From an uncultured Roseiflexaceae bacterium (lineage in GTDB: Bacteria; Chloroflexota; Chloroflexia; Chloroflexales; Roseiflexaceae), in the NCBI GenBank assembly GCA_937988885.1, contig CALKHR010000034.1, positions 23,310-87,309 of the forward strand: a DNA stretch of 64,000 bases, in the 5' to 3' direction. The translations under genes were made by a program, and so were the position numbers. Under the pieces are notes generated by a model that saw only the letters and a list, made by a program, of their open reading frames with translations, was not told where the DNA came from and did no database searches. The first letter of the stretch is position 1. Every line of letters starts with the position of its first letter. Shown here in pieces: positions 28,735 to 39,048 of this stretch.

Positions 28735-29865
28735 TTATGCGAACTGGATAACCTGGCGCACCGCCGCGCCTCTCGCCAGCGCGTCGAAGGCCGGATTAAT
28801 CTCCTCCAGCGTGATCGTGCTGCTCATCAACCGATCGACGGGCAACAACCCAGCTTGATACATCGAGATAAAGCGGGGAATATCGCGGCGCGGCACTGCC
28901 GAACCCATATACGAGCCTTTGACGGTGCGCTCCTCGGCCACCAGGCTCACCGCCGAGATCGTGAACTGCTTGCTGGGGTGCGGCAATCCCACCGTCACCG
29001 TGGTGCCGCCGCGCCGCGTGCTCTGGTACGCCTGCGCCAACACCACCTCGTTGCCGACGCTCTCGAAGGTGTACTGCGCTCCGCCGCTGGTGATCTGCTT
29101 GATCGCCTCGACGACGTTTGGCTCCCGCGCGTTGACCGTGTGTGTCGCGCCGAGCGCACGGGCCAATTCCAGCTTCGAGTCGAGCAGATCCACCGCGACG
29201 ATCGGGTACGCGCCCGAGGCTCGCGCTCCCAAGATCGCGCTCAAGCCCACGCCGCCCAGGCCGAACACCGCCACGCTCGCGCCCGGCTCGACGCGGGCGG
29301 TGTTCACCACCGCGCCCACGCCCGTCATCACCGCGCAGCCGAACAGCGCCGCAGTCTGAAGCGGCAGCGTTGGGTCGATCTTCACCAGCGATTCTTGCGC
29401 GGCCACCGTGTAGTGCGAGAAGGCCGAGACACCCAGGTGGTGGTTAAGCGTCTGCCCGGCGGCGTTGCGGAAGCGGCGGTGCCCGCTGAGCAGTGAGCCA
29501 GCCGTGTTGCTCTGCGCGCCGTTCTCGCAGAGCACGGGTCGCCCGGTGGCGCAGGGCAGACAGCGGCTGCAACTCGGCACAAACGAGAACACCACGTGAT
29601 CATCGGGTGCAAAATCCACCACGCCCGCGCCAACCTCACGAACGATCCCTGCGGCCTCGTGGCCCATCACCATCGGCATCACGCGGGGGCGCGAGCCGTC
29701 GATCACCGACAGATCGGAATGGCATAATCCAGCGGCAACAACCTCCACCAATACCTCGCCCGGGCCGGGGCCTTCAAGCTCAAGCTCCTCGATCACAAGC
29801 GGTTGCGATGCGGCGTACGGGGCGGGTTGTTGCATATTGTACAGTACAGCGGCTTTTGTTTTCAT
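28735..29865 (-). CDS. Zn-dependent alcohol dehydrogenase, class III-like (formaldehyde dehydrogenase-like)
   Basis: GHEAAGIV catalytic-zinc motif, structural-zinc Cys cluster, Rossmann GLGGVG; start at ATG 29865 with GGAGAGGAT RBS (track ORF to 29946). Confidence 0.85.
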   Translation of the reverse strand: MKTKAAVLYNMQQPAPYAASQPLVIEELELEGPGPGEVLVEVVAAGLCHSDLSVIDGSRPRVMPMVMGHEAAGIVREVGAGVVDFAPDDHVVFSFVPSCSRCLPCATGRPVLCENGAQSNTAGSLLSGHRRFRNAAGQTLNHHLGVSAFSHYTVAAQESLVKIDPTLPLQTAALFGCAVMTGVGAVVNTARVEPGASVAVFGLGGVGLSAILGARASGAYPIVAVDLLDSKLELARALGATHTVNAREPNVVEAIKQITSGGAQYTFESVGNEVVLAQAYQSTRRGGTTVTVGLPHPSKQFTISAVSLVAEERTVKGSYMGSAVPRRDIPRFISMYQAGLLPVDRLMSSTITLEEINPAFDALARGAAVRQVIQFA

Positions 29866-29944
29866 GATCCTCTCCGATCTGGTCTCTCCTTGGAGTTGCC
29901 CTATTGTAGCGCAGATCGCTGTTCGGTGAAGGGGTGACGTGATC

Positions 29945-30495
29945 ATCCACAGATTACACAGATTGAATAAAGTGAGGGATTTAGAGCGCGACGAAAAGCG
30001 CTGTCATCTCGAACGAGCCGATAGGCGACGTGAGAGATCTCGACGTGTAGCGCTGCGGGCAGACAATGAGATTCTTCATTCCGCTGCGCTCCATTCAGAA
30101 TGACAATGAGGAAGCGACGAAATGCACTGTCATCATTCCGATGCGCTCCATTCAGAATGACAATGAGAGGCAACGAAAAAACGTTGTCATCTCGAATGAG
30201 CCGTCAGGCGAAATGAGAGATCTCAGCGGGGATGCAATGTGTTGCAATGGGAGGCAGTGAGGAAACAATGAGATTCCTCACTCCGTGCTACGCACTCCGT
30301 TCGGAATGACAGCGAAGAACGATGAAAAGCATTGTCATCCTGAACGGAACCGAAGGCGAAGTGAAGGATCTCATCGTGGAATCATCGCGTTGCGCAGTGG
30401 GTACACGATGAGATTCTTCATTCCGCTGCGCTCCATTCAGAATGACAATGAGGAGGCAATGAAAAACACTGCCCTCCATCGAATGACAACGACCA
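29945..30495. mobile_element. MITE-like element, left TIR atccacagattacacagatt followed by at least 4 expanded about 45-70-bp internal repeat units (gagattcttcattccgctgcgctccattcagaatgacaatgag...); right TIR missing
   Basis: 20-bp TIR identical (1 mismatch) to left TIR of 33273-33579 element; internal units share the ...gagattcttca.t.cg.gct.cgc.ct.c.ttcagaatgac core; small ORFs 30066-30536 are repeat artefacts. Confidence 0.6.
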
Positions 30496-30497
30496 CC

Positions 30498-31298
30498 CTA
30501 CCCCGCGAGAAACCGCAGGACCACCTCATTAAATAGCTCAGGCCGTTGCAGTGGCGCGAAGTGGCTGACGCCCGGCAGTAGCTCCCACGATGCGTTGGGG
30601 AGTTGCTGCACCAGGTATTCGGCGTGCTCGCGTTTGATGAACTCGTCGTGCTCGGCGTGCACCACCGCCACGGGCACGCGGATGCGCGCAAGGTCTTGCG
30701 CGGTGTAGTTCGGCTGCGTCGCCTGCATCAGGTTGACCGCCTCCATCAGATCGTCGAACTGCTGCGGTGTCGCCGAGAGGGCTGCGTAGTTTTGGCGGTG
30801 GCGCTGAATGCAGTGCTGCAACGTCGGCGGGAAATCAGTGAGCTCTTTGGTACCGCTGGGGTCCATGTTGCAGCCGAAGAATAGCACCGCCTCTACGCGC
30901 TGTGGCCGCCGATCCGCCAGGCAGAGCGCTGTGCAAGCGCCGTCGCTCCACCCCACCAGCTTGGCTGATGCGATGCCGAGATGGTCCATCACCGCCGCGA
31001 GGTCGTCGCCCATCAGCTCGTAGCTGTAGGGCTGCCCGTCGCGGGTGCTGCGCCCGTGCCCTCGGCTGTCGAGCAGCACCACCCGATAGCCGCCTGCCAG
31101 CAGCGCGGGCACTTGGTAGCCCCAGTTGCCGCTGTGGCCCAGCCCGCCGTGCAGCAGGAACACTGCTGGCCCCGCGCCGTAGGCCGCATACCAGAGCCGA
31201 GCGCCCGCGTGCTCCACCCAGCCTTGTTCGCCGCCAGCGGGCAGCGGCGTCGGACCTTCCGCCGCGAAGTGTGCCAGTTCGGGATCGGTGAAGGGCAT
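30498..31298 (-). CDS. alpha/beta-fold hydrolase
   Basis: HGGLGHS oxyanion region, GWSDG nucleophile elbow (GxSxG), C-terminal His; 266 aa. Confidence 0.85.
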   Translation of the reverse strand: MPFTDPELAHFAAEGPTPLPAGGEQGWVEHAGARLWYAAYGAGPAVFLLHGGLGHSGNWGYQVPALLAGGYRVVLLDSRGHGRSTRDGQPYSYELMGDDLAAVMDHLGIASAKLVGWSDGACTALCLADRRPQRVEAVLFFGCNMDPSGTKELTDFPPTLQHCIQRHRQNYAALSATPQQFDDLMEAVNLMQATQPNYTAQDLARIRVPVAVVHAEHDEFIKREHAEYLVQQLPNASWELLPGVSHFAPLQRPELFNEVVLRFLAG

Positions 31299-31767
31299 CG
31301 ATCTGTCCTTTCTCTGCGCTACACTGCCATGTTTCGTTTAGTATAGCACAAGTGTGCGTTTGGCGTGATAATTTGACCATATGACTTTGACAGTCACAAT
31401 GTGTTCAGAACTAGGCAAAGTGCAGCATTGGGAGACCGCGAGTAAGGCGGCGCGCGTTCTGGCGCGCAGCGCCACAGCTGTCCGAGCGCGCACACGTTGT
31501 GCACGACGTTGTTTGCCCGTAGCGACGGGAGTGAAGGCGCTGGTAACTCTTCTTCTCCAAAAACCTATCGTATTGGCTTACGTTGACATAAAGTTCTTCA
31601 AGAAGAGGAAGCTGCCGTGTGGGGAGGTCCGTGATCATGCTCTGGACTTTGGAGTGCTAGCCAGGGCGGAGGTGCAGGACTACGGCTCGCTACGGCGGTG
31701 TGATCCGGGCGCTGCGCCAAACGCCACCAAGTACAATGCTGGTATATCGGTGGCGTTTGACATAACG

Positions 31768-32400
31768 TTACTCGAAGCGCACGATCAGTTCGTTGAGCGG
31801 GCGGCGCGGGCGGCGCTGCGGGTCGGCGGCGGCGTAGCCGATGGTGATCAGGGCGTGCGGGATCAGCGCCGGGTCGAGGTCGAGCGCGGTCACGACGACT
31901 TCGGGGCAGAAGAGTGGCGCGCACATCCAACCGCCGTCCAGGCCGAGCTGGTAGGCGGTCAGCAGAATGTTCTGCACGGCGCAGCCCAGGCTCTGCACGG
32001 CCATGGTTGTCTCGGCGGCGTCGCGTGCGGCGTCGGGGTATTTGTCCAGGTCGGCTAGGTAGAGGCAGGGAATGATGATGGCTGGCGCGTTTTGGATGCG
32101 CTGTTTGGATTTGTTGAAGCGCGTCTCGATGATCTCGGGCGCTTGGCCGTCGAGCGAGAGTTGCCGCCGCCATTCGTCGCCCATCGAGTCGGCGAGGCGT
32201 TGCTTGATCTCGGGACGGGTCAGCACGACGAAGCGCCAGGGCTGCCGCCCGTGCGGCGAGGGTGCCCAGCGGGCCGCTTCGAGCATGGCCATGAGCGCTT
32301 CGTGGGGCACCGGACGGTCGTGGTAGCGGCGCACCGAGCGCCGCCCGCTGATGATCTCAGCCAAGGTGAGGTGTTCGCGATTGGGTGTTGTCTCTGCCAT
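31768..32400 (-). CDS. nitroreductase-family protein, FbiB C-terminal-domain-like (dehydro-F420-0 reductase candidate)
   Basis: Nitroreductase fold (RRSVRRY, APSPHGRQPWRF); immediately downstream of cofE as in split FbiB arrangements. Confidence 0.7.
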   Translation of the reverse strand: MAETTPNREHLTLAEIISGRRSVRRYHDRPVPHEALMAMLEAARWAPSPHGRQPWRFVVLTRPEIKQRLADSMGDEWRRQLSLDGQAPEIIETRFNKSKQRIQNAPAIIIPCLYLADLDKYPDAARDAAETTMAVQSLGCAVQNILLTAYQLGLDGGWMCAPLFCPEVVVTALDLDPALIPHALITIGYAAADPQRRPRRPLNELIVRFE

Positions 32401-32418
32401 GTGGCTTCCTAGTGCGGT

Positions 32419-33177
32419 CTAGCGGAATAGGTCTTTTTCGGGAGCGCGGATAAGCGCGCGGGAGTTGGCCTGCTCCGAGGGCGTGTAGGCGTAGCCGCGC
32501 ACGATCGCGATCGGCACCGCATCGACTTTGCCCATCACTAGCTCGGCGGCGGAGGCGAGTTCGTCGGCGACGGCCAGCATGCTCACGTGCATGGTGTAGC
32601 CGTAGGCGTCGGGTTGTCCGGCATAGTCGCTCAGCGGCAGCATGCCCGCCACGCCGATCGCGACGTTGACTTGGCCCTCGCGCCAGGGCCGCCCGAAGGT
32701 ATCCGAGATGATTACGGCGACATCGACTCCGGCGCGTTCGCGCAGGGCTTGGCGCAGCGCTGCGGCGGAGGCATCGGGATCGACGGGCAGCAGGGTGAGC
32801 AGGCCGTTGCCGTTCACGTTCGATTCATCGACGCCAGAGTTGGCGCAGATCCAGCCGTGGTGCGTCTCGGTGATCAGCACGCCACGGGTCATGCGCACGA
32901 CGCGGCGGCTTTCGCGCAGCACCACCTCGTAGTGGTGGGCGTCTTTAGCGCCCTGTTCGGCGATCTGCTGGGCGAAGTACGATGGCTCAACGGTCTTCGG
33001 GTCGATTACGCGGCCTTCGGCTTTGGAGACGACTTTCTGGGTGACGACGACGATATCGCCGTCGGCGAGGGTTTGCTGGTGCTGTTCGAGGGCCTGCAGC
33101 ATGAGTGCGGCGAGGTCGTCGCCGGGGTGAATATCGCCAATCCCACGCACTGGGATAATTCGTAGCTCACCTGTCAT
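32419..33177 (-). CDS. cofE: coenzyme F420-0:L-glutamate ligase
   Basis: CofE family sequence (ITETHHGWICANSGVDESN, ISDTFGRPWREGQ); start at ATG 33177 with AAAGGAA RBS. Confidence 0.8.
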   Translation of the reverse strand: MTGELRIIPVRGIGDIHPGDDLAALMLQALEQHQQTLADGDIVVVTQKVVSKAEGRVIDPKTVEPSYFAQQIAEQGAKDAHHYEVVLRESRRVVRMTRGVLITETHHGWICANSGVDESNVNGNGLLTLLPVDPDASAAALRQALRERAGVDVAVIISDTFGRPWREGQVNVAIGVAGMLPLSDYAGQPDAYGYTMHVSMLAVADELASAAELVMGKVDAVPIAIVRGYAYTPSEQANSRALIRAPEKDLFR

Positions 33178-33272
33178 ACTCGTTCCTTTTGCAGAGCATG
33201 GTAAAAAGACTCGGGCATTGTACAACGGATGCGATCCAGCGGCAACTTGCTGCGTATCCACAGAGATTTGGT

Positions 33273-33579
33273 ATCCACAGATTTCACAGATTGAGCAGTA
33301 TGGATGTATCGTTGTTACGGTTAACATAAAATTCTTCGTATGGTTCGTAGCAGCGTGCTGCTACCACTTCTAGACGTTCAAGGCTGGACGAGACGTGGAG
33401 ATTCTTCACTTCGTGCTACGCACTCGTTCAGAATGACTCTAAGGGCGATGTATTCCGCTCACCAAGTCACCAGCTCACCAAGTCACCTTGTCAAGACATC
33501 CAGAAGCTCAAGACAGGACGAGACATTGAACAGGAAAGCATCAACAACATCTTCCAAATAATCTGTGTAATCTGTGGAT
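33273..33579. mobile_element. complete about 307-bp MITE with 20-bp terminal inverted repeats atccacagatttcacagatt / aatctgtgtaatctgtggat
   Basis: Perfect-match TIRs (19/20) at 33273-33292 and 33560-33579; internal copy of the gagattcttcacttcgtgctacgcactcgttcagaatgac motif and a 14-bp tandem duplication ctcaccaagtcacc x2. Confidence 0.7.
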
Positions 33580-33813
33580 TATCCCTCCCCGATTGCTAGT
33601 GAATAAATTGTTATTCTGAGCCTGTATTTTCGCATTGACAAGCATTTCGATCGCTGCTAGGATAGGGCTACCCCGCAATCAACATCCCGCTCTCGTCTTC
33701 GCCCAAAGGTACCTACAACCCTTATCTTGGTTTCTTGGCTGTCCCGCATTTTGGCGGTGCTACAGCGCGTTGGCGTTTTCCCTTATCTGCTGTTGTCGCG
33801 AAAAGGAGTTGGT

Positions 33814-36800
33814 ATGCTTGGTACGCTTCCCTCCACACATAGTATGGCAGTGCGAGGATTAGGCCTGCTACGATTGTGGCTGGCGATCGTGATGATCCTG
33901 CTGAGTGTCGCTGTTGTGGCGTCGCCAGTATGGGCTGCAGGGACGATCAGTCTCACCAATTTGAATGTGGCGGTGTCCGAAGACTTCGATACGCTCGCCA
34001 GCTCTGGCACGTCGAGCACGGTGCCGAACGGCTGGGAGTTCTTGGAATCTGGCACGTCTGCCTCTGTAAATGGCTTGTACACCGCCGGTACTGGTTCAAG
34101 CAATACTGGCGATACGTACAGCTTCGGTGCAACTGGTAGCTCGGATCGGGCGCTCGGCGCGCTGCGCAGTGGCACAATCAATACGATCATCGGTGCACAT
34201 TTCACCAATGATACGGGCTCCACCATCACGCAGTTGACGATAAGTTACACGGGCGAGTTGTGGCGATTAGGAACTACTGGCCGTGATGATCGGATCGACT
34301 TCCAGTATAGCTTGACGGCCACTGGCCTCAACACTGGCGCGTTTGTCGATGTCAACGAGCTTGATGTGGTGACGCCCGATTCCAGTGGCACGGCTGGCGC
34401 ACGCGATGGTAACGACCCGCAGTTCCGCACAACTGTGAGCCACACTATCACTGGCCTGACGATCGATCCCGGCGCGTCGTTCTGGATTCGCTGGGTCGAT
34501 TTCGATGCGAGCGGTGCCGATGACGGATTGGCGATCGATGATTTCAGCCTGATTCCCGGTGGCGCTTCTTCCTCCACCAACCCGACAGGTTCGGCGACCG
34601 TTACGCCTGCGAGTGTGGATGCGGGCGATACCACGCTGATCACGGTCGATGTGACGCCCGGCACGAATCCGGCCAGCACCAACCTCAGCGTGGTGGCGAA
34701 TCTGGCGGCGATCGGCGGCTCGATCAACCAAACACTGTACGATGATGGTACGCATGGCGATGTGACGAGCGGCGACCTGACCTTCTCGTTTGAGGCCACG
34801 GTGGATGCCGCCACTACGGCGGGTATCTACGATCTGCCGATCACAATCAGCGATGATGAGGGGCGCAGCAGCAACACCAGCGTTGCCTTGACGGTGACCG
34901 CTCCGGCTGGCGATGCCAAGGTGGTGATCAGCCAGGTGTACGGCGGCGGCGGCAACGCGGATGCAACGCTGAAGAACGACTTTATCGAGTTGTACAACGC
35001 TGGCACCGCGAGCCAGAGTTTGGCTGGTTGGTCGGTGCAATACGCTAGTGCGGCGGGCACAAGTTGGCAGGTCACGACACTGTCGGGAGTGATTGCGCCC
35101 GGGCAGTATTACCTGATCCAACAGGCAGCTGGTAATGGCGGAACGCTCGATCTGCCGCCTCCGCACGCGATCGGTACGATTCCGATGAGTGCCACGAGCG
35201 GTAAGGTGGCCTTGGTATCGAGTGCCTCTCCGCTAAGCGGCGCATGCCCTATCGGCAATCCATTGGTCGTTGATTTCGTGGGCTACGGCTCGGCGAACTG
35301 CTTTGAGGGCAGCGGCCCCACCGATTTGCTCAGCAACACCACGGCGGCGCTGCGCTTGGGCGATGGTGCCACCGATACCGACGATAACGCCAACGACTTC
35401 GAGGTCGGCGCACCCTACCCGCTGCACGTCGATTATGCGCCGAGTGTGCTGAGCACTACTCCGGCCAGCAACGCAACCGACGTCGCTCCGGCTAGCTCGA
35501 TCGAGATCACTTTCAGTGAGCCGGTCGTCGTGACGGGTTCGTGGTTCTCGATCGTGTGTGCCAACAGCGGCAGCCACACGGCTACCGTGAGCGGCGGTCC
35601 GACCGTCTACACGCTCAATCCCGATGTCGATTTCGATGCCGACGAGCAGTGTACGGTCACGCTGGTGGCGTCGCAGATCAGCGATGTGGACAGCGACGAC
35701 CCGCCGGATACGATGGCCGCCAATTACGTCTGGAGCTTCACCACTGGCTCTGTTGCGGTCTGTGGCTCGACCTTCACGCCGATCTACGCGGTTCAGGGTA
35801 GCGGCATGAGCGCTGCGATCACTGGCATTGTGACGGTGGAAGGTGTGGTCATCGGTGACTTCGAGGGCAGTGGTGGCCTCGGCGGCTTCTACTTGCAAGA
35901 CCCGGAGGGCGATAACGACCCGACGACCTCTGATGGTATCTTCGTCTACACAGGCGGCACCGATACGGTTAGCGTTGGCCAGCACGTGCGCGTGACAGGC
36001 TACGCTCGTGAGCGTTTCAACCTGACCTCGCTCAACGGCGCGAACGACAACAACGCTGCGGTGCCAGCCGCCAACATCACGATCTGTGGTGAGGGCGCGG
36101 AGATCACTCCGGTTGAAGTGACGATGCCGTTCCCATCGAGCACCTACCTCGAGCGCTTCGAGGGCATGCTGGTGACGCTGCCGCAGGCGCTGACGATCGC
36201 CGAATACTTCGACTATGAGCGTTACGGCGAGATCGTGTTGTCGTACCCCGACGATATTGCAGCACTGACTGGGCCGAAGCGCTTCTACACGCCGACCGCG
36301 ATTGTTGCGCCGGGTGCGCCCGCTGCAGCGCTCGCCGCAGAGTACGAGCTGCGCAAAATCACGCTCGACGACGGTTTGGGCGTGCAGAACCCCAACACGT
36401 TGCGCCACCCCAACGGCCAGCCGTTCGGCATCAACAACTCCTTCCGTGGCGGCGATAAGGTGCAGGGTGTGACGGGCGTGCTGAGCTACGATTTCAGCCT
36501 CTACCGCATCCAGCCGACTGCTCCGGCCACCTACACTGCTGTGAACCCACGGCCAGCGGCTCCAGAGGATGTCGGCGGTCGCTTGAAGGTGGGTGCGTTC
36601 AACACGCTGAACTACTTCCTGACGTTGGATGCTCTCGACGACTCCACGAACAATGATGATCCCGCCGATAACGTGTGTGGAGGCAACGCCAATCTCGATT
36701 GTCGTGGCGCGGATCTGAGCCAGCCCAACGAGTTCCCACGACAACGGGCCAAATTGCTTCAAGCGATCATCGGCCTGGACGCCGATGTGCTGGGCCTGAA

Positions 36801-39048
36801 CGAGTTGGAGAACACGCCGGGCGTCGAGCCGCTGGCCGATATCGTCTCTGGCCTGAACGACATCCTCGGCCCGAACACGTACGCCTACATCGATACTGGC
36901 ACGCTGGGCACGGATGCCATCAAGGTTGGTATCATCTACAAGCCCGCCAAGGTCACGCCGGTCGGCAACTACGCGGTGCTCACATCGAGCGTTGACCCAC
37001 GCTTCGACGAGAGCCGCAACCGACCTTCGCTTGCGCAAACCTTCGAGGAGGTCGGCACTGGCGCACGCTTCACGGTGGCCGTCAACCACCTGAAGTCGAA
37101 GGGCTCGGCTTGTGCTGGTGATCCCGACACGGGCGATGGTCAGGGCAACTGTAACGGCACGCGCACCAACGCGGCGCGGGCGCTGGTCGATTGGCTCGCC
37201 TCCGACCCGACGGGCAGCGGCGACCCCGACTTCCTGATCTTGGGTGACCTGAACTCCTACGCGCAGGAAGATCCGATCAAAGCAATCATTGCGGGTGCCG
37301 ATGATACGCTTGGCACCAGCGACGATTGGACCAACCTGATCGCGCACTTCCAGGGTCTGTTCGCCTACTCCTACGTGTTCGATGGCCAGCTCGGCTACCT
37401 CGATCACGCATTGGCGAACGCCAGCATCTTCCCGCAGGTCACGGGCGCGACCGATTGGCATATCAATGCCGACGAATCGGATGTGTACGACTACGACACC
37501 AGCTTCAAACCAGCGTCGCAGCAGGCGATCTACGAGGAGAACGCCTATCGCACGGCGGATCACGATCCAGTGCTGATCGGCCTGAACCTAACTGCACCCA
37601 CACCGCCGAACAGTGCGCCGGTGGTCGTTGACGACAACTACACCGTCGATGCCAACGCCACCCTGACCGTTCCTGGAGAGGGTGTGCTCGCGAACGACAG
37701 CGACCCCGACAACGATCCACTGACGGCTGTTCTAGTGAGCGATGTGAGCAACGGTGTGCTCACGCTGAACCCGAATGGCTCGTTTACCTACACTCCTTCG
37801 GCTGGTTTCGTGGGCACCGATTCGTTTACCTACCAAGCCTCTGATGGCGAACTGACCTCGAATGTGGCGACGGTCACGATCACCGTGCAGGGGCAGAGTG
37901 GTCCACCCAGCATCGCGCCGATCGACGACCTTGTACCGCGCGGCGAGGTGCCCGTGGAGTTGTGTGCTCAGGGCACAGGTTGGCTCTACATTTCGGTCAC
38001 CGACCCGGACACTCCTGTTAACGCCCTCACGTTCAGCGCAAGCTCCACCAACAACGCGTTGGTGGGGGCGGGACAAGTGCAGGTCGCAGCACTATCGTCG
38101 CCCGCCAACGGCTTCCGCGTGCAGGTGACGCCGACCAACGGCCAGAGCGGCACCGCTCAGGTGACGCTCACGGTGAGCGATGGCACAGGCAGCGCGAGCT
38201 ACAGCTTCCGCGTTATCGTGGGCACCCCCGCTAACGAGACCCTCAACGGCAGCGACGGGCCGGATATCATCTTCGGTATGGGCGGCAACGACAAGCTGAA
38301 CGGCAAGGGCGGCAACGACATGCTTTGCGCTCCGAGCGGCAACGTGCAACTTGCTGGCGGTGCTGGCGCCGATATCCTAGTGAGCGGCGCGGGCAACGAC
38401 AAGTTGAGCGGCAACGACGGCAACGACATGCTCTTTGCCGGCGCGGGCAACGATACGCTTGAGGGCGGCAACGGCGACGATTGGCTCGAAGGCGACGCAG
38501 GCAACGATACGCTCAAGGGCGGTCCTGGCAACGATTCGTTGTTCGGCGGCGCAGACAATGACACACTAGAGGGCAGCGAAGGCGATGACCTGCTCGACGG
38601 TGGCGACGGTAAGGATGCACTCAAGGGCGGCGATGGCAACGACACCCTGCGCGGTGGCGCGGGCAACGACACCCTTGAGGGCGGCAACGGCGATGACACG
38701 CTGTATGGCGATGCCGACGACGATACACTCAAGGGCGGCAATGGCGACGACACGCTGTATGGCGGCGACGGCAAGGACTCCCTTGAGGGCGGCGAAGGCA
38801 TTGATATCCTGTACGGCGATGCCGGAGACGACACGCTCAAAGGTGGTAACGGCAACGACCTACTCTACGGCGGTGACGGTAACGACACTCTTGAGGGTGG
38901 CAACGGCGACGATGAGTTGTACGGCGGCGACGGCAACGACACCCTCAAAGGTGGTAACGGCGCCGACTTCTTCGATGGCGGCGAAGGCACCGATACCGCC
39001 AGCGACTTCAAGGCCAATCAGGGCGATACCCGGATCAACATCCCCTAA
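33814..39048 (+). CDS. giant secreted ExeM/NucH-family extracellular endonuclease (lamin-tail domain plus EEP nuclease domain) with cadherin/VCBS-like repeats and C-terminal RTX calcium-binding repeats
   Basis: Signal peptide after ATG 33814 (RBS GGAG); LTD ([26 protein letters not shown]); EEP motifs ([35 protein letters not shown]); more than 20 GGxGxDxL nonapeptide repeats 38.2-39.0 kb. Confidence 0.7.

Follow-up and report, generated by a model that had tools for sequence, protein, structure and literature searches.

Two probable cross-phylum palindromic modules in a Roseiflexaceae contig: an arm-bounded element built like rRNA intervening sequences and a REP-like hairpin array

We analyzed the repeats around the genes for an alpha/beta hydrolase, a nitroreductase and the cofactor F420 enzyme CofE in a 64-kb stretch (64,000 nucleotides, referred to as the window) of contig CALKHR010000034.1 from an uncultured Roseiflexaceae bacterium, for which an initial annotation had proposed a family of miniature inverted-repeat transposable elements (MITEs). 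The explanation we lean towards, and hold to be probable if only by a modest degree, is that these repeats represent two unrelated palindromic modules which both recur across phyla. The first is bounded by inverted arms of the CACAGATT family and resembles the intervening sequences (IVSs) of ribosomal RNA (rRNA), and the second consists of hairpins similar to repetitive extragenic palindromic (REP) sequences, which form a recombining array of the kind known as bacterial interspersed mosaic elements (BIMEs). We read the CACAGATT elements as IVS-like elements located outside rRNA because their build matches that of cassettes with S23p or GxxExxY genes and that of the Coxiella IVS.

Two kinds of repeats in the window

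The 20-mer ATCCACAGATTWCACAGATT, which is composed of ATC and two tandem 9-mers CACAGATTN, occurs in the window at 29945-29964 and 33273-33292 on the plus strand and at 33560-33579 on the minus strand, in agreement with the initial annotation. No copy is expected by chance (0.00 in 100 dinucleotide shuffles) and no further copy with up to three mismatches is present in the 64 kb, so that the arm at 29945 has no right arm or partner there. A self-comparison showed the repeats of the window to be confined to two spacers, 29870-30500 and 33179-33730. In the second spacer the compact 307-bp unit with both inverted arms stands as it had been described (Table 1), and its arms are 95% complementary over 20 nt. 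The interior of this element is non-coding and largely non-palindromic, includes a single hairpin unit as well as several 8-mers in tandem and contains no detectable protein remnant, and a tandem repeat is called at 33254-33284 over its left arm.

The block from 29945 to 30495 had been taken for an internally expanded copy of the same element, with a left arm, no right arm and at least four copies of an internal unit. The arm, the missing partner and four unit copies in the orientation described (30068, 30270, 30410 and the incomplete 30130, to which 33398 inside the 307-bp element can be added) were found again. Aligning the copies revealed three more units on the opposite strand (30003, 30186 and 30334), however, and because of these the block is an alternating array and not a head-to-tail expansion. 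It is thus composed of a solo arm and a separate class of repeats, namely eight REP-like hairpin units of which seven are complete or nearly complete and one is a fragment. The complete units are 37–41 nt long and occur in both orientations as in BIMEs, with the ATTCT/ATTCC outer stems all facing one way and the ATCTC/ATCCT outer stems the other. Every unit folds into a hairpin of three helices, in which the GA/GA and G(G)A internal loops are symmetric, with the layout GTC-5 bp-GA-2 bp-loop-apical stem-loop-2 bp-GA-5 bp-CTC.

Support for this fold comes from 20 distinct units of the window and its strain variants as well as of viral contigs and metagenomes, in which the outer-helix cells are paired to 97%. 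Compensatory double changes are seen in five of seven pairs, and none of 500 shuffles reached the observed score. As the collecting pattern left Y and R free at these positions, the pairing is not imposed by the sampling. For the arms, strand consistency of G.U pairs was of little use, the genome sample being biased by the search pattern and the viral sample containing almost no informative pairs. A search with Rfam over the hairpins gave nothing relevant at gathering or permissive thresholds apart from one chance snoRNA match (E = 0.3). Only tRNAs and one fluoride riboswitch were found in 18 hairpin-bearing loci, and no family reached its gathering score in the whole window, tRNA and rRNA included. 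The small open reading frames (ORFs) over the repeats, for example 30066-30260, 30285-30536 and 33340-33561, had been suspected to be spurious, and where tested they indeed gave no family match.

Table 1. Positions of the arms, hairpin units and related repeats in the window.
Feature	Position	Strand	Remarks
Solo arm, CACAGATT family	29945..29964	+	ATC + 2 tandem 9-mers; marks the end of the hairpin array on the side of the alcohol dehydrogenase gene
B-type hairpin unit, GTCATCTC...GAGATCTC	30003..30041	+	39 nt
A-type hairpin unit, minus strand reads GTCATTCT...AGAATCTC	30068..30104	-	37 nt; commonest unit
A-type unit without its 3' part	30130..30161	-	contains the A/B crossover interval
B-type hairpin unit	30186..30224	+	39 nt
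A-type hairpin unit	30270..30310	-	41 nt; ATTCC/GGAAT outer stem, GTGC-gta-GCAC apex
B-type hairpin unit	30334..30372	+	39 nt; ATCCT/AGGAT outer stem
A-type hairpin unit	30410..30446	-	identical to 30068-30104
Partial unit ..CTCCATCGAATGAC	30470..30487	-	directly 3' of the hydrolase stop codon
Left arm of the 307-bp element	33257..33292	+	20-mer 33273-33292 after a degenerate third repeat CCACAGAGATTTGGT
307-bp arm-bounded element	33273..33579	.	one T.T mismatch in the 20-bp basal stem
Single A-type hairpin unit inside the 307-bp element	33398..33437	-	
Tandem 8-mers (CACCAAGT-like) inside the 307-bp element	33457..33487	+	arm-like, partnerless
Right arm of the 307-bp element	33560..33579	-	exact complement of the 29945 arm

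Distribution, architecture and cargo of the modules

A scan of one genome per species identified at least 119 CACAGATT arm stretches, and at least 120 were found in viral contigs, with up to about ten copies on a single 36-kb contig. The arm-bearing taxa belong to at least ten phyla and include Acidobacteriota (many of them Pyrinomonadaceae, with MAGs that carry at least 4 copies), Planctomycetota, Verrucomicrobiota, Chloroflexota, Bacteroidota, Cyanobacteria, Gemmatimonadota, Alpha-, Gamma- and Deltaproteobacteria, Spirochaetes (Treponemataceae), Nitrospirota, Caldithrix and one archaeal metagenome-assembled genome (MAG). The contig with a solo arm at L042:5090-5115 (numbers with L denote the collected loci) has a high G+C content and was binned as a Thermoplasmatota archaeon; the arm could be a true archaeal copy, or the contig a mis-binned bacterial one. 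Cultured phage genomes gave no arm match, and the only plasmid matches were five Bacteroides finegoldii replicons. The hairpin units are dispersed as well: the commonest 37-mer, with three degenerate positions, is present in 23 unrelated metagenome contigs of 34–69% G+C, and variants of the unit occur in four viral contigs. In other genomes the 37-mer is mostly found as a single copy or as one doublet per contig, its usual partner being a different unit in opposite orientation 14–22 nt away, and the doublet is often nested in a further palindrome. Its near-identity over such different base compositions suggests either recent horizontal spread or a strong sequence-specific recognition and is the most puzzling point of the analysis. 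The initial annotation had considered a mere local duplication in case the motifs were found nowhere else. This does not apply because both motifs belong to multi-copy dispersed families.

In each arm ATC precedes two or three 9-mers in tandem, which have the form C(A/G)CAGATTN, and in all 51 arm pairs with a spacing of up to 320 nt the ATC-CACAGATT arms face outward. The interiors of these pairs range from 1 to 225 nt, extend to a small gene in L026 and are mutually unrelated in sequence. Several elements are near-perfect nested hairpins (z = -13 to -22) whose arms consist of consecutive stretches, each of another tandem short repeat. By far most copies are intergenic; they typically start 3–27 nt past the upstream stop codon and occupy the spacer, which was co-directional for 25 pairs, convergent for eight and divergent for five. 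Outside the conserved arms the flanks of an element are often complementary to each other, over at least 3 bp in nine elements (0.8 expected) and over at least 4 bp in six (0.2 expected), and a slid control left no element with three or more consecutive pairs. About 40% of the copies outside the window show a hairpin-apex geometry.

Arms may also be arranged in series. Head-to-tail arm-bounded elements with a period of 266–276 bp are present at L049:5200-6900 (a Gemmatimonadales MAG, 6–7 copies), where the left arms show CGCAG at the place of CTGTG in the right arms, and at L078:2870-3400 (Asticcacaulis sp. AC402, two copies). As the cyanobacterial contig L061 (1420-1640) shows five CACAGATT arms in the same orientation with GTCTGAAGGAGG linkers and no inverted partner, arms can also form direct arrays.

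Inverted arms of tandem 7–9-mers bracket five of six distinct S23p genes and both GxxExxY genes that we found. The only one of these cassettes with CACAGATT arms is L026, in which a decayed GxxExxY/PDDEXK_3 gene is tightly bracketed in a short co-directional spacer. A second GxxExxY/PDDEXK_3 gene is located in L115 between arms of CACGAAG, and the S23p genes have arms of GACAGGA (L115), TAAGGG (L015), GAGTAGG (L277), TAGTGGT (L279) and AGGGTGT (L280-282). S23p proteins form the 23S_rRNA_IVP family (PF05635/TIGR02436) and are four-helix bundles distantly similar to Avd. Regarding strand bias, the 5' arm is purine-rich for GACAGGA, GAGTAGG, AGGGTGT, TAAGGG, CACGAAG and CACAGATT, whichever strand is read, and only in L098 does a pyrimidine-rich arm come first; a Shine-Dalgarno-like AGGAG or GGAG lies within several 5' arms. 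A GxxExxY-based locus search in viral contigs gave no relatives, and an apparent methylase motif in a bracketed viral-contig gene was not confirmed. In the literature searched we found no relevant publication on the arm and hairpin-unit sequences and nothing on structures flanking the GxxExxY or four-helix-bundle protein.

The IVS in the 23S rRNA of Coxiella has a 28-bp inverted-repeat stem with GACAGAT heptamers in variable copy number and an S23p ORF in its loop, and RNase III cleaves it midway along the stem (PMC4990558). In rRNA helices IVSs take the place of the tetraloops; their distribution is sporadic, and their mobility, for which no mechanism is known, has been suspected for a long time (PMC4990558). 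The CACAGATT elements share with the 23S rRNA IVSs of Coxiella, Leptospira, Salmonella and others the terminal inverted repeats forming a 20–30-bp stem, the tandem short repeats of variable copy number within this stem (two or three GACAGAT in Coxiella, two or three CACAGATTN here) and a loop that is empty or contains a decaying gene or a small gene of the S23p type. Further common features are the apparent position at the apex of a pre-existing hairpin, the sporadic and horizontally transferred occurrence and the lack of a known transposase or mobility mechanism. They differ from IVSs in being located in spacers of protein genes and in viral contigs instead of rRNA, in having another arm sequence that recurs across many phyla and in a cargo that includes GxxExxY/PDDEXK_3. 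The window copy moreover lacks an S23p ORF or remnant and the location in helix 9, 25 or 45 of 23S rRNA; it carries no cargo and is possibly untranscribed, and any processing of it by RNase III is putative.

In the architecture described, two outward-facing arms pair to a long stem around a variable interior, be it a few nucleotides, nested palindromes or a small selfish-type gene. Of the copies in the window, that at 33273-33579 is complete but without cargo and that at 29945 is a solo arm. From these comparisons we infer how the modules might move and what they might do. If transcribed, such a stem should be a substrate for RNase III, by which the insert would be cut out of the RNA as it is in IVSs, and this might be why inserts are tolerated in spacers that are very short, in rRNA helices and in viral contigs. 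Both the IVS analogy and the flank data let the arm elements appear to be seated at hairpin apices. The hairpin units may act as 3'-end hairpins of the hydrolase transcript and could serve as portable recombination substrates.

Strain variants and neighboring genes

The gene order around the repeats is a zinc alcohol dehydrogenase (28735-29866, minus strand), the alpha/beta hydrolase, the nitroreductase and CofE, these last three having been named correctly before, and a giant RTX/cadherin protein. Metagenome contigs with an identical hydrolase gene represent three structural alleles of this locus; the JGI samples in which this population occurs include 3300059434 and 3300051389. While L122 shows the window allele, L120 and L121 possess an extra segment with a gene for a 1529-aa NACHT/HEAT protein between two direct copies of array plus arm, and L123 and L125 are identical in build on the array-A side and stop short of array B. 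In L124 the flanking genes are 99.7% identical and the array holds three copies of another palindromic module. That arrays differ between strains so similar in their flanking genes points to a turnover of the modules. This further module, GACCTGTCAGGTGC and GCACCTGACAGGTC separated by about 30 nt and flanked by AATGC..CATTGCC, is interleaved with hairpin units at L124:4330-4830 and L255:1590-1700 and absent from the window array. Since an arm terminates each of the two arrays in L121 and precedes the array in the relative L255, the solo arm plus array is a recurrent composite in this lineage.

A three-way alignment with L121 showed the window array to match array A at 100% identity up to base 30141 and array B, again at 100%, beyond it, with the crossover lying in the shared TCATTCCG at 30133-30140 and base 30141 being diagnostic. 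From this A/B hybrid we conclude that the window allele is the reciprocal of L121 formed by homologous exchange between the arrays, an exchange in which the NACHT segment, some 5.9 kb long, was lost or gained. This recombination did not give rise to the truncated unit at 30130, which is already present in array B. The NACHT/HEAT gene itself (e.g. L121:4315-8904, missing at window 29964-30497) is present or absent between strains that are otherwise 98–100% identical; NACHT/HEAT proteins are STAND-type NTPases, a class often linked to defence.

A rearrangement, which the initial annotation had considered for the F420 genes, has taken place at this locus and was driven by repeats, but it concerns the NACHT segment outside the bracket and not these genes. 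The block of hydrolase, nitroreductase and cofE is constant in all strain contigs covering it, and the adjacency of cofE and the nitroreductase gene is kept in relatives without these elements, so neither the strain variants nor the cofE relatives gave evidence for a mobilization of the F420 genes. The closest named CofE relatives come from Roseiflexaceae and Chloroflexaceae MAGs (73–77% identity). In the 470-bp spacer between hydrolase and nitroreductase about 210 bp (31363-31571) are 73% similar to positions 9179-9399 of L121 just upstream of array B, which could be either one more dispersed module that is non-coding or the duplicate of a promoter region. The giant protein (33727-39048, 1773 aa) combines at least 13 stretches of RTX nonapeptides with Ig-like, cadherin-like and lamin-tail domains, its gene has a repeat with a 108-bp period at 38384-38997, and the identity of L120 over this region is no more than 97.8%.

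Weighing the explanations

As a classical MITE, the family would depend on a transposase acting in trans on the 20-bp terminal repeats, with the left copy being damaged and internally expanded and the pair perhaps having moved the F420 genes as a composite. This interpretation is partly supported: inverted repeats do bound a short non-coding unit, the family is multi-copy, dispersed and found in viral contigs as a mobile element should be, and the outer arms at 29945 and 33560 have the right mutual polarity and are 96% complementary over 24 nt, better than the 33273/33560 pair. Short, intergenic, multi-copy elements bounded by inverted repeats are also what is known from Correia, Nezha and RUP, and MITEs often form hairpins in transcripts. 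The CACAGATT elements differ in the decisive features, however. No target-site duplication or other direct repeat was found at the 51 + 23 arm pairs inspected (the 307-bp copy is flanked by TTGGT and TATCC), and complementary flanks are seen instead. The copies have no homologous interior, some interiors being as short as 1–10 nt. Whole elements may be nested, and their size lies anywhere between about 40 nt and that of a cassette. Arms 1.5–2.5 kb apart enclose ordinary genes and no transposase, and a tblastn search of the window and of related and unrelated loci (about 2.9 Mb) with an IS200/RAYT probe gave no Y1/IS200-like transposase of the REP-associated (RAYT) type. The exact arm is common to many phyla and thus not genome-specific, the left block belongs to a different repeat class, and the bracketed genes do not vary in the strain variants covering them while the segment outside does. 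We therefore regard a MITE family as improbable.

The absence of a RAYT gene at this level of search also bears on the idea that a domesticated IS200-like transposase encoded elsewhere has spread the GTCAT...ATCTC hairpins, and perhaps the arms, in which case the arrays would be true BIMEs. Much in the hairpins resembles the REP, BIME and REPIN (REP doublet forming hairpins) systems of Proteobacteria: they are imperfect palindromes of 37–41 nt (about 35–40 nt there) with conserved 5' and 3' tails, are intergenic and mostly follow genes, form alternating clusters of two unit types comparable to the Y and Z REPs of BIMEs as well as REPIN-like inverted doublets with 14–22-nt spacers in other genomes, serve as substrates for recombination and rearrangement, and show the strictly Watson–Crick compensation expected for DNA hairpins. 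To our knowledge REP families are species- or genus-specific, unlike the unit described here, which is nearly identical in distant genomes, occurs in a Chloroflexales host and is present in most other genomes as one copy or doublet per contig and not in hundreds of copies. In addition, the arrays of this lineage have further palindromic modules built in and terminate in a CACAGATT arm. A RAYT-driven origin is thus unlikely in our opinion.

Hairpins serving only the host, such as terminators, 3'-end stabilizers or processing sites, would be non-mobile and similar to each other due to a shared optimal sequence. Their typical position 3–27 nt past stop codons in co-directional or convergent spacers, the very stable folds and the location of the window array directly after the hydrolase stop codon would fit such a role, but most copies lack the U-tract of intrinsic terminators and no hairpin function requires identical 20–37-mers across phyla and G+C contents. 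As copies also nest, form tandem arrays (L049, L078) and in some cases bracket selfish-type genes, we find this explanation very unlikely. It is hardly credible that the 9-mers are primarily protein-binding DNA sites of the operator or iteron type, for example clusters of DnaA boxes, which came into consideration due to the 9-bp periodicity, a TTATCCACA start in some copies (TTATCCACA / TGTGGATAA stands at about 10 of 45 hairpin bases) and the window arms each lying 15–56 nt upstream of a promoter-like -35 hexamer, in the case of the solo arm 15 nt upstream of the promoter-like site predicted by consensus for the alcohol dehydrogenase gene. The second and third 9-mers stray from the DnaA consensus, most copies follow stop codons instead of preceding promoters, and equivalent arms are built from unlike repeat units (GACAGGA, CACGAAG, GAGTAGG, AGGGTGT). 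A DnaA box as the main function of TTATCCACA was rejected, as box positions 1–2 are variable (CC, CG, TG and GT being as common as TT) and the conserved CAGATT lies outside the consensus.

Several observations weigh against two modules with an IVS-like and a REP-like character as well. The link to IVSs is one of shared architecture and not of arm homology, with CACAGATT and GACAGAT having only ACAGAT in common. The 307-bp copy has no cargo, its stem comprises just 20 bp with a T.T mismatch, the element folds weakly overall (z about -2.3), no extended pairing of its flanks was found, and it is 100% identical in all five strain variants covering it. Because consensus promoter-like sites for the divergent cofE (-35 at 33245) and RTX (-35 at 33635) genes flank it, it possibly lies outside both transcripts. 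A pair of filled and empty sites was not found among the CofE relatives compared (77–81% identity), since the upstream synteny is not conserved in them. Genes between arms in viral contigs had no Pfam or PHROG match and were for this reason not counted as cargo; two intergenic arms that are independent of each other may simply happen to enclose them. Finally, the stems of the 20 hairpin units contain no G.U pair, and with no such intermediates a palindrome acting at the level of DNA fits at least as well as one acting in RNA.

A broader version of the two-module explanation would join all these elements in one superfamily with the rRNA IVSs as its known tip. Its members would have 7–9-mer arms, insert at hairpin apices (terminators, rRNA loops and each other), be copied with the help of a GxxExxY PD-(D/E)XK nuclease or an Avd-like S23p cargo, be neutralized by RNase III, be accompanied by cargo-less hairpins as non-autonomous riders and move between phyla possibly on viruses, with the CACAGATT arms and the GTCAT hairpins being two of its module types. 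The nesting of elements would follow from such an insertion at hairpin apices, including those of other elements. We see this as a possibility only, and on balance a doubtful one.

In summary, the suggestion that the F420 genes in this window were moved by a composite transposon can be removed, and the modules provide portable homology by which near-identical strains gain or lose genes. These modules also generate spurious ORFs and hypothetical proteins and break assemblies. What makes them of interest is their identity across phyla and their tie to the unsolved problem of IVSs, as the origin and mobility of rRNA IVSs have been an open question for more than 30 years (PMC4990558). If the IVS architecture indeed fills ordinary spacers and viral contigs of many phyla and carries two recurrent cargo proteins, the question of where IVSs come from would become testable.

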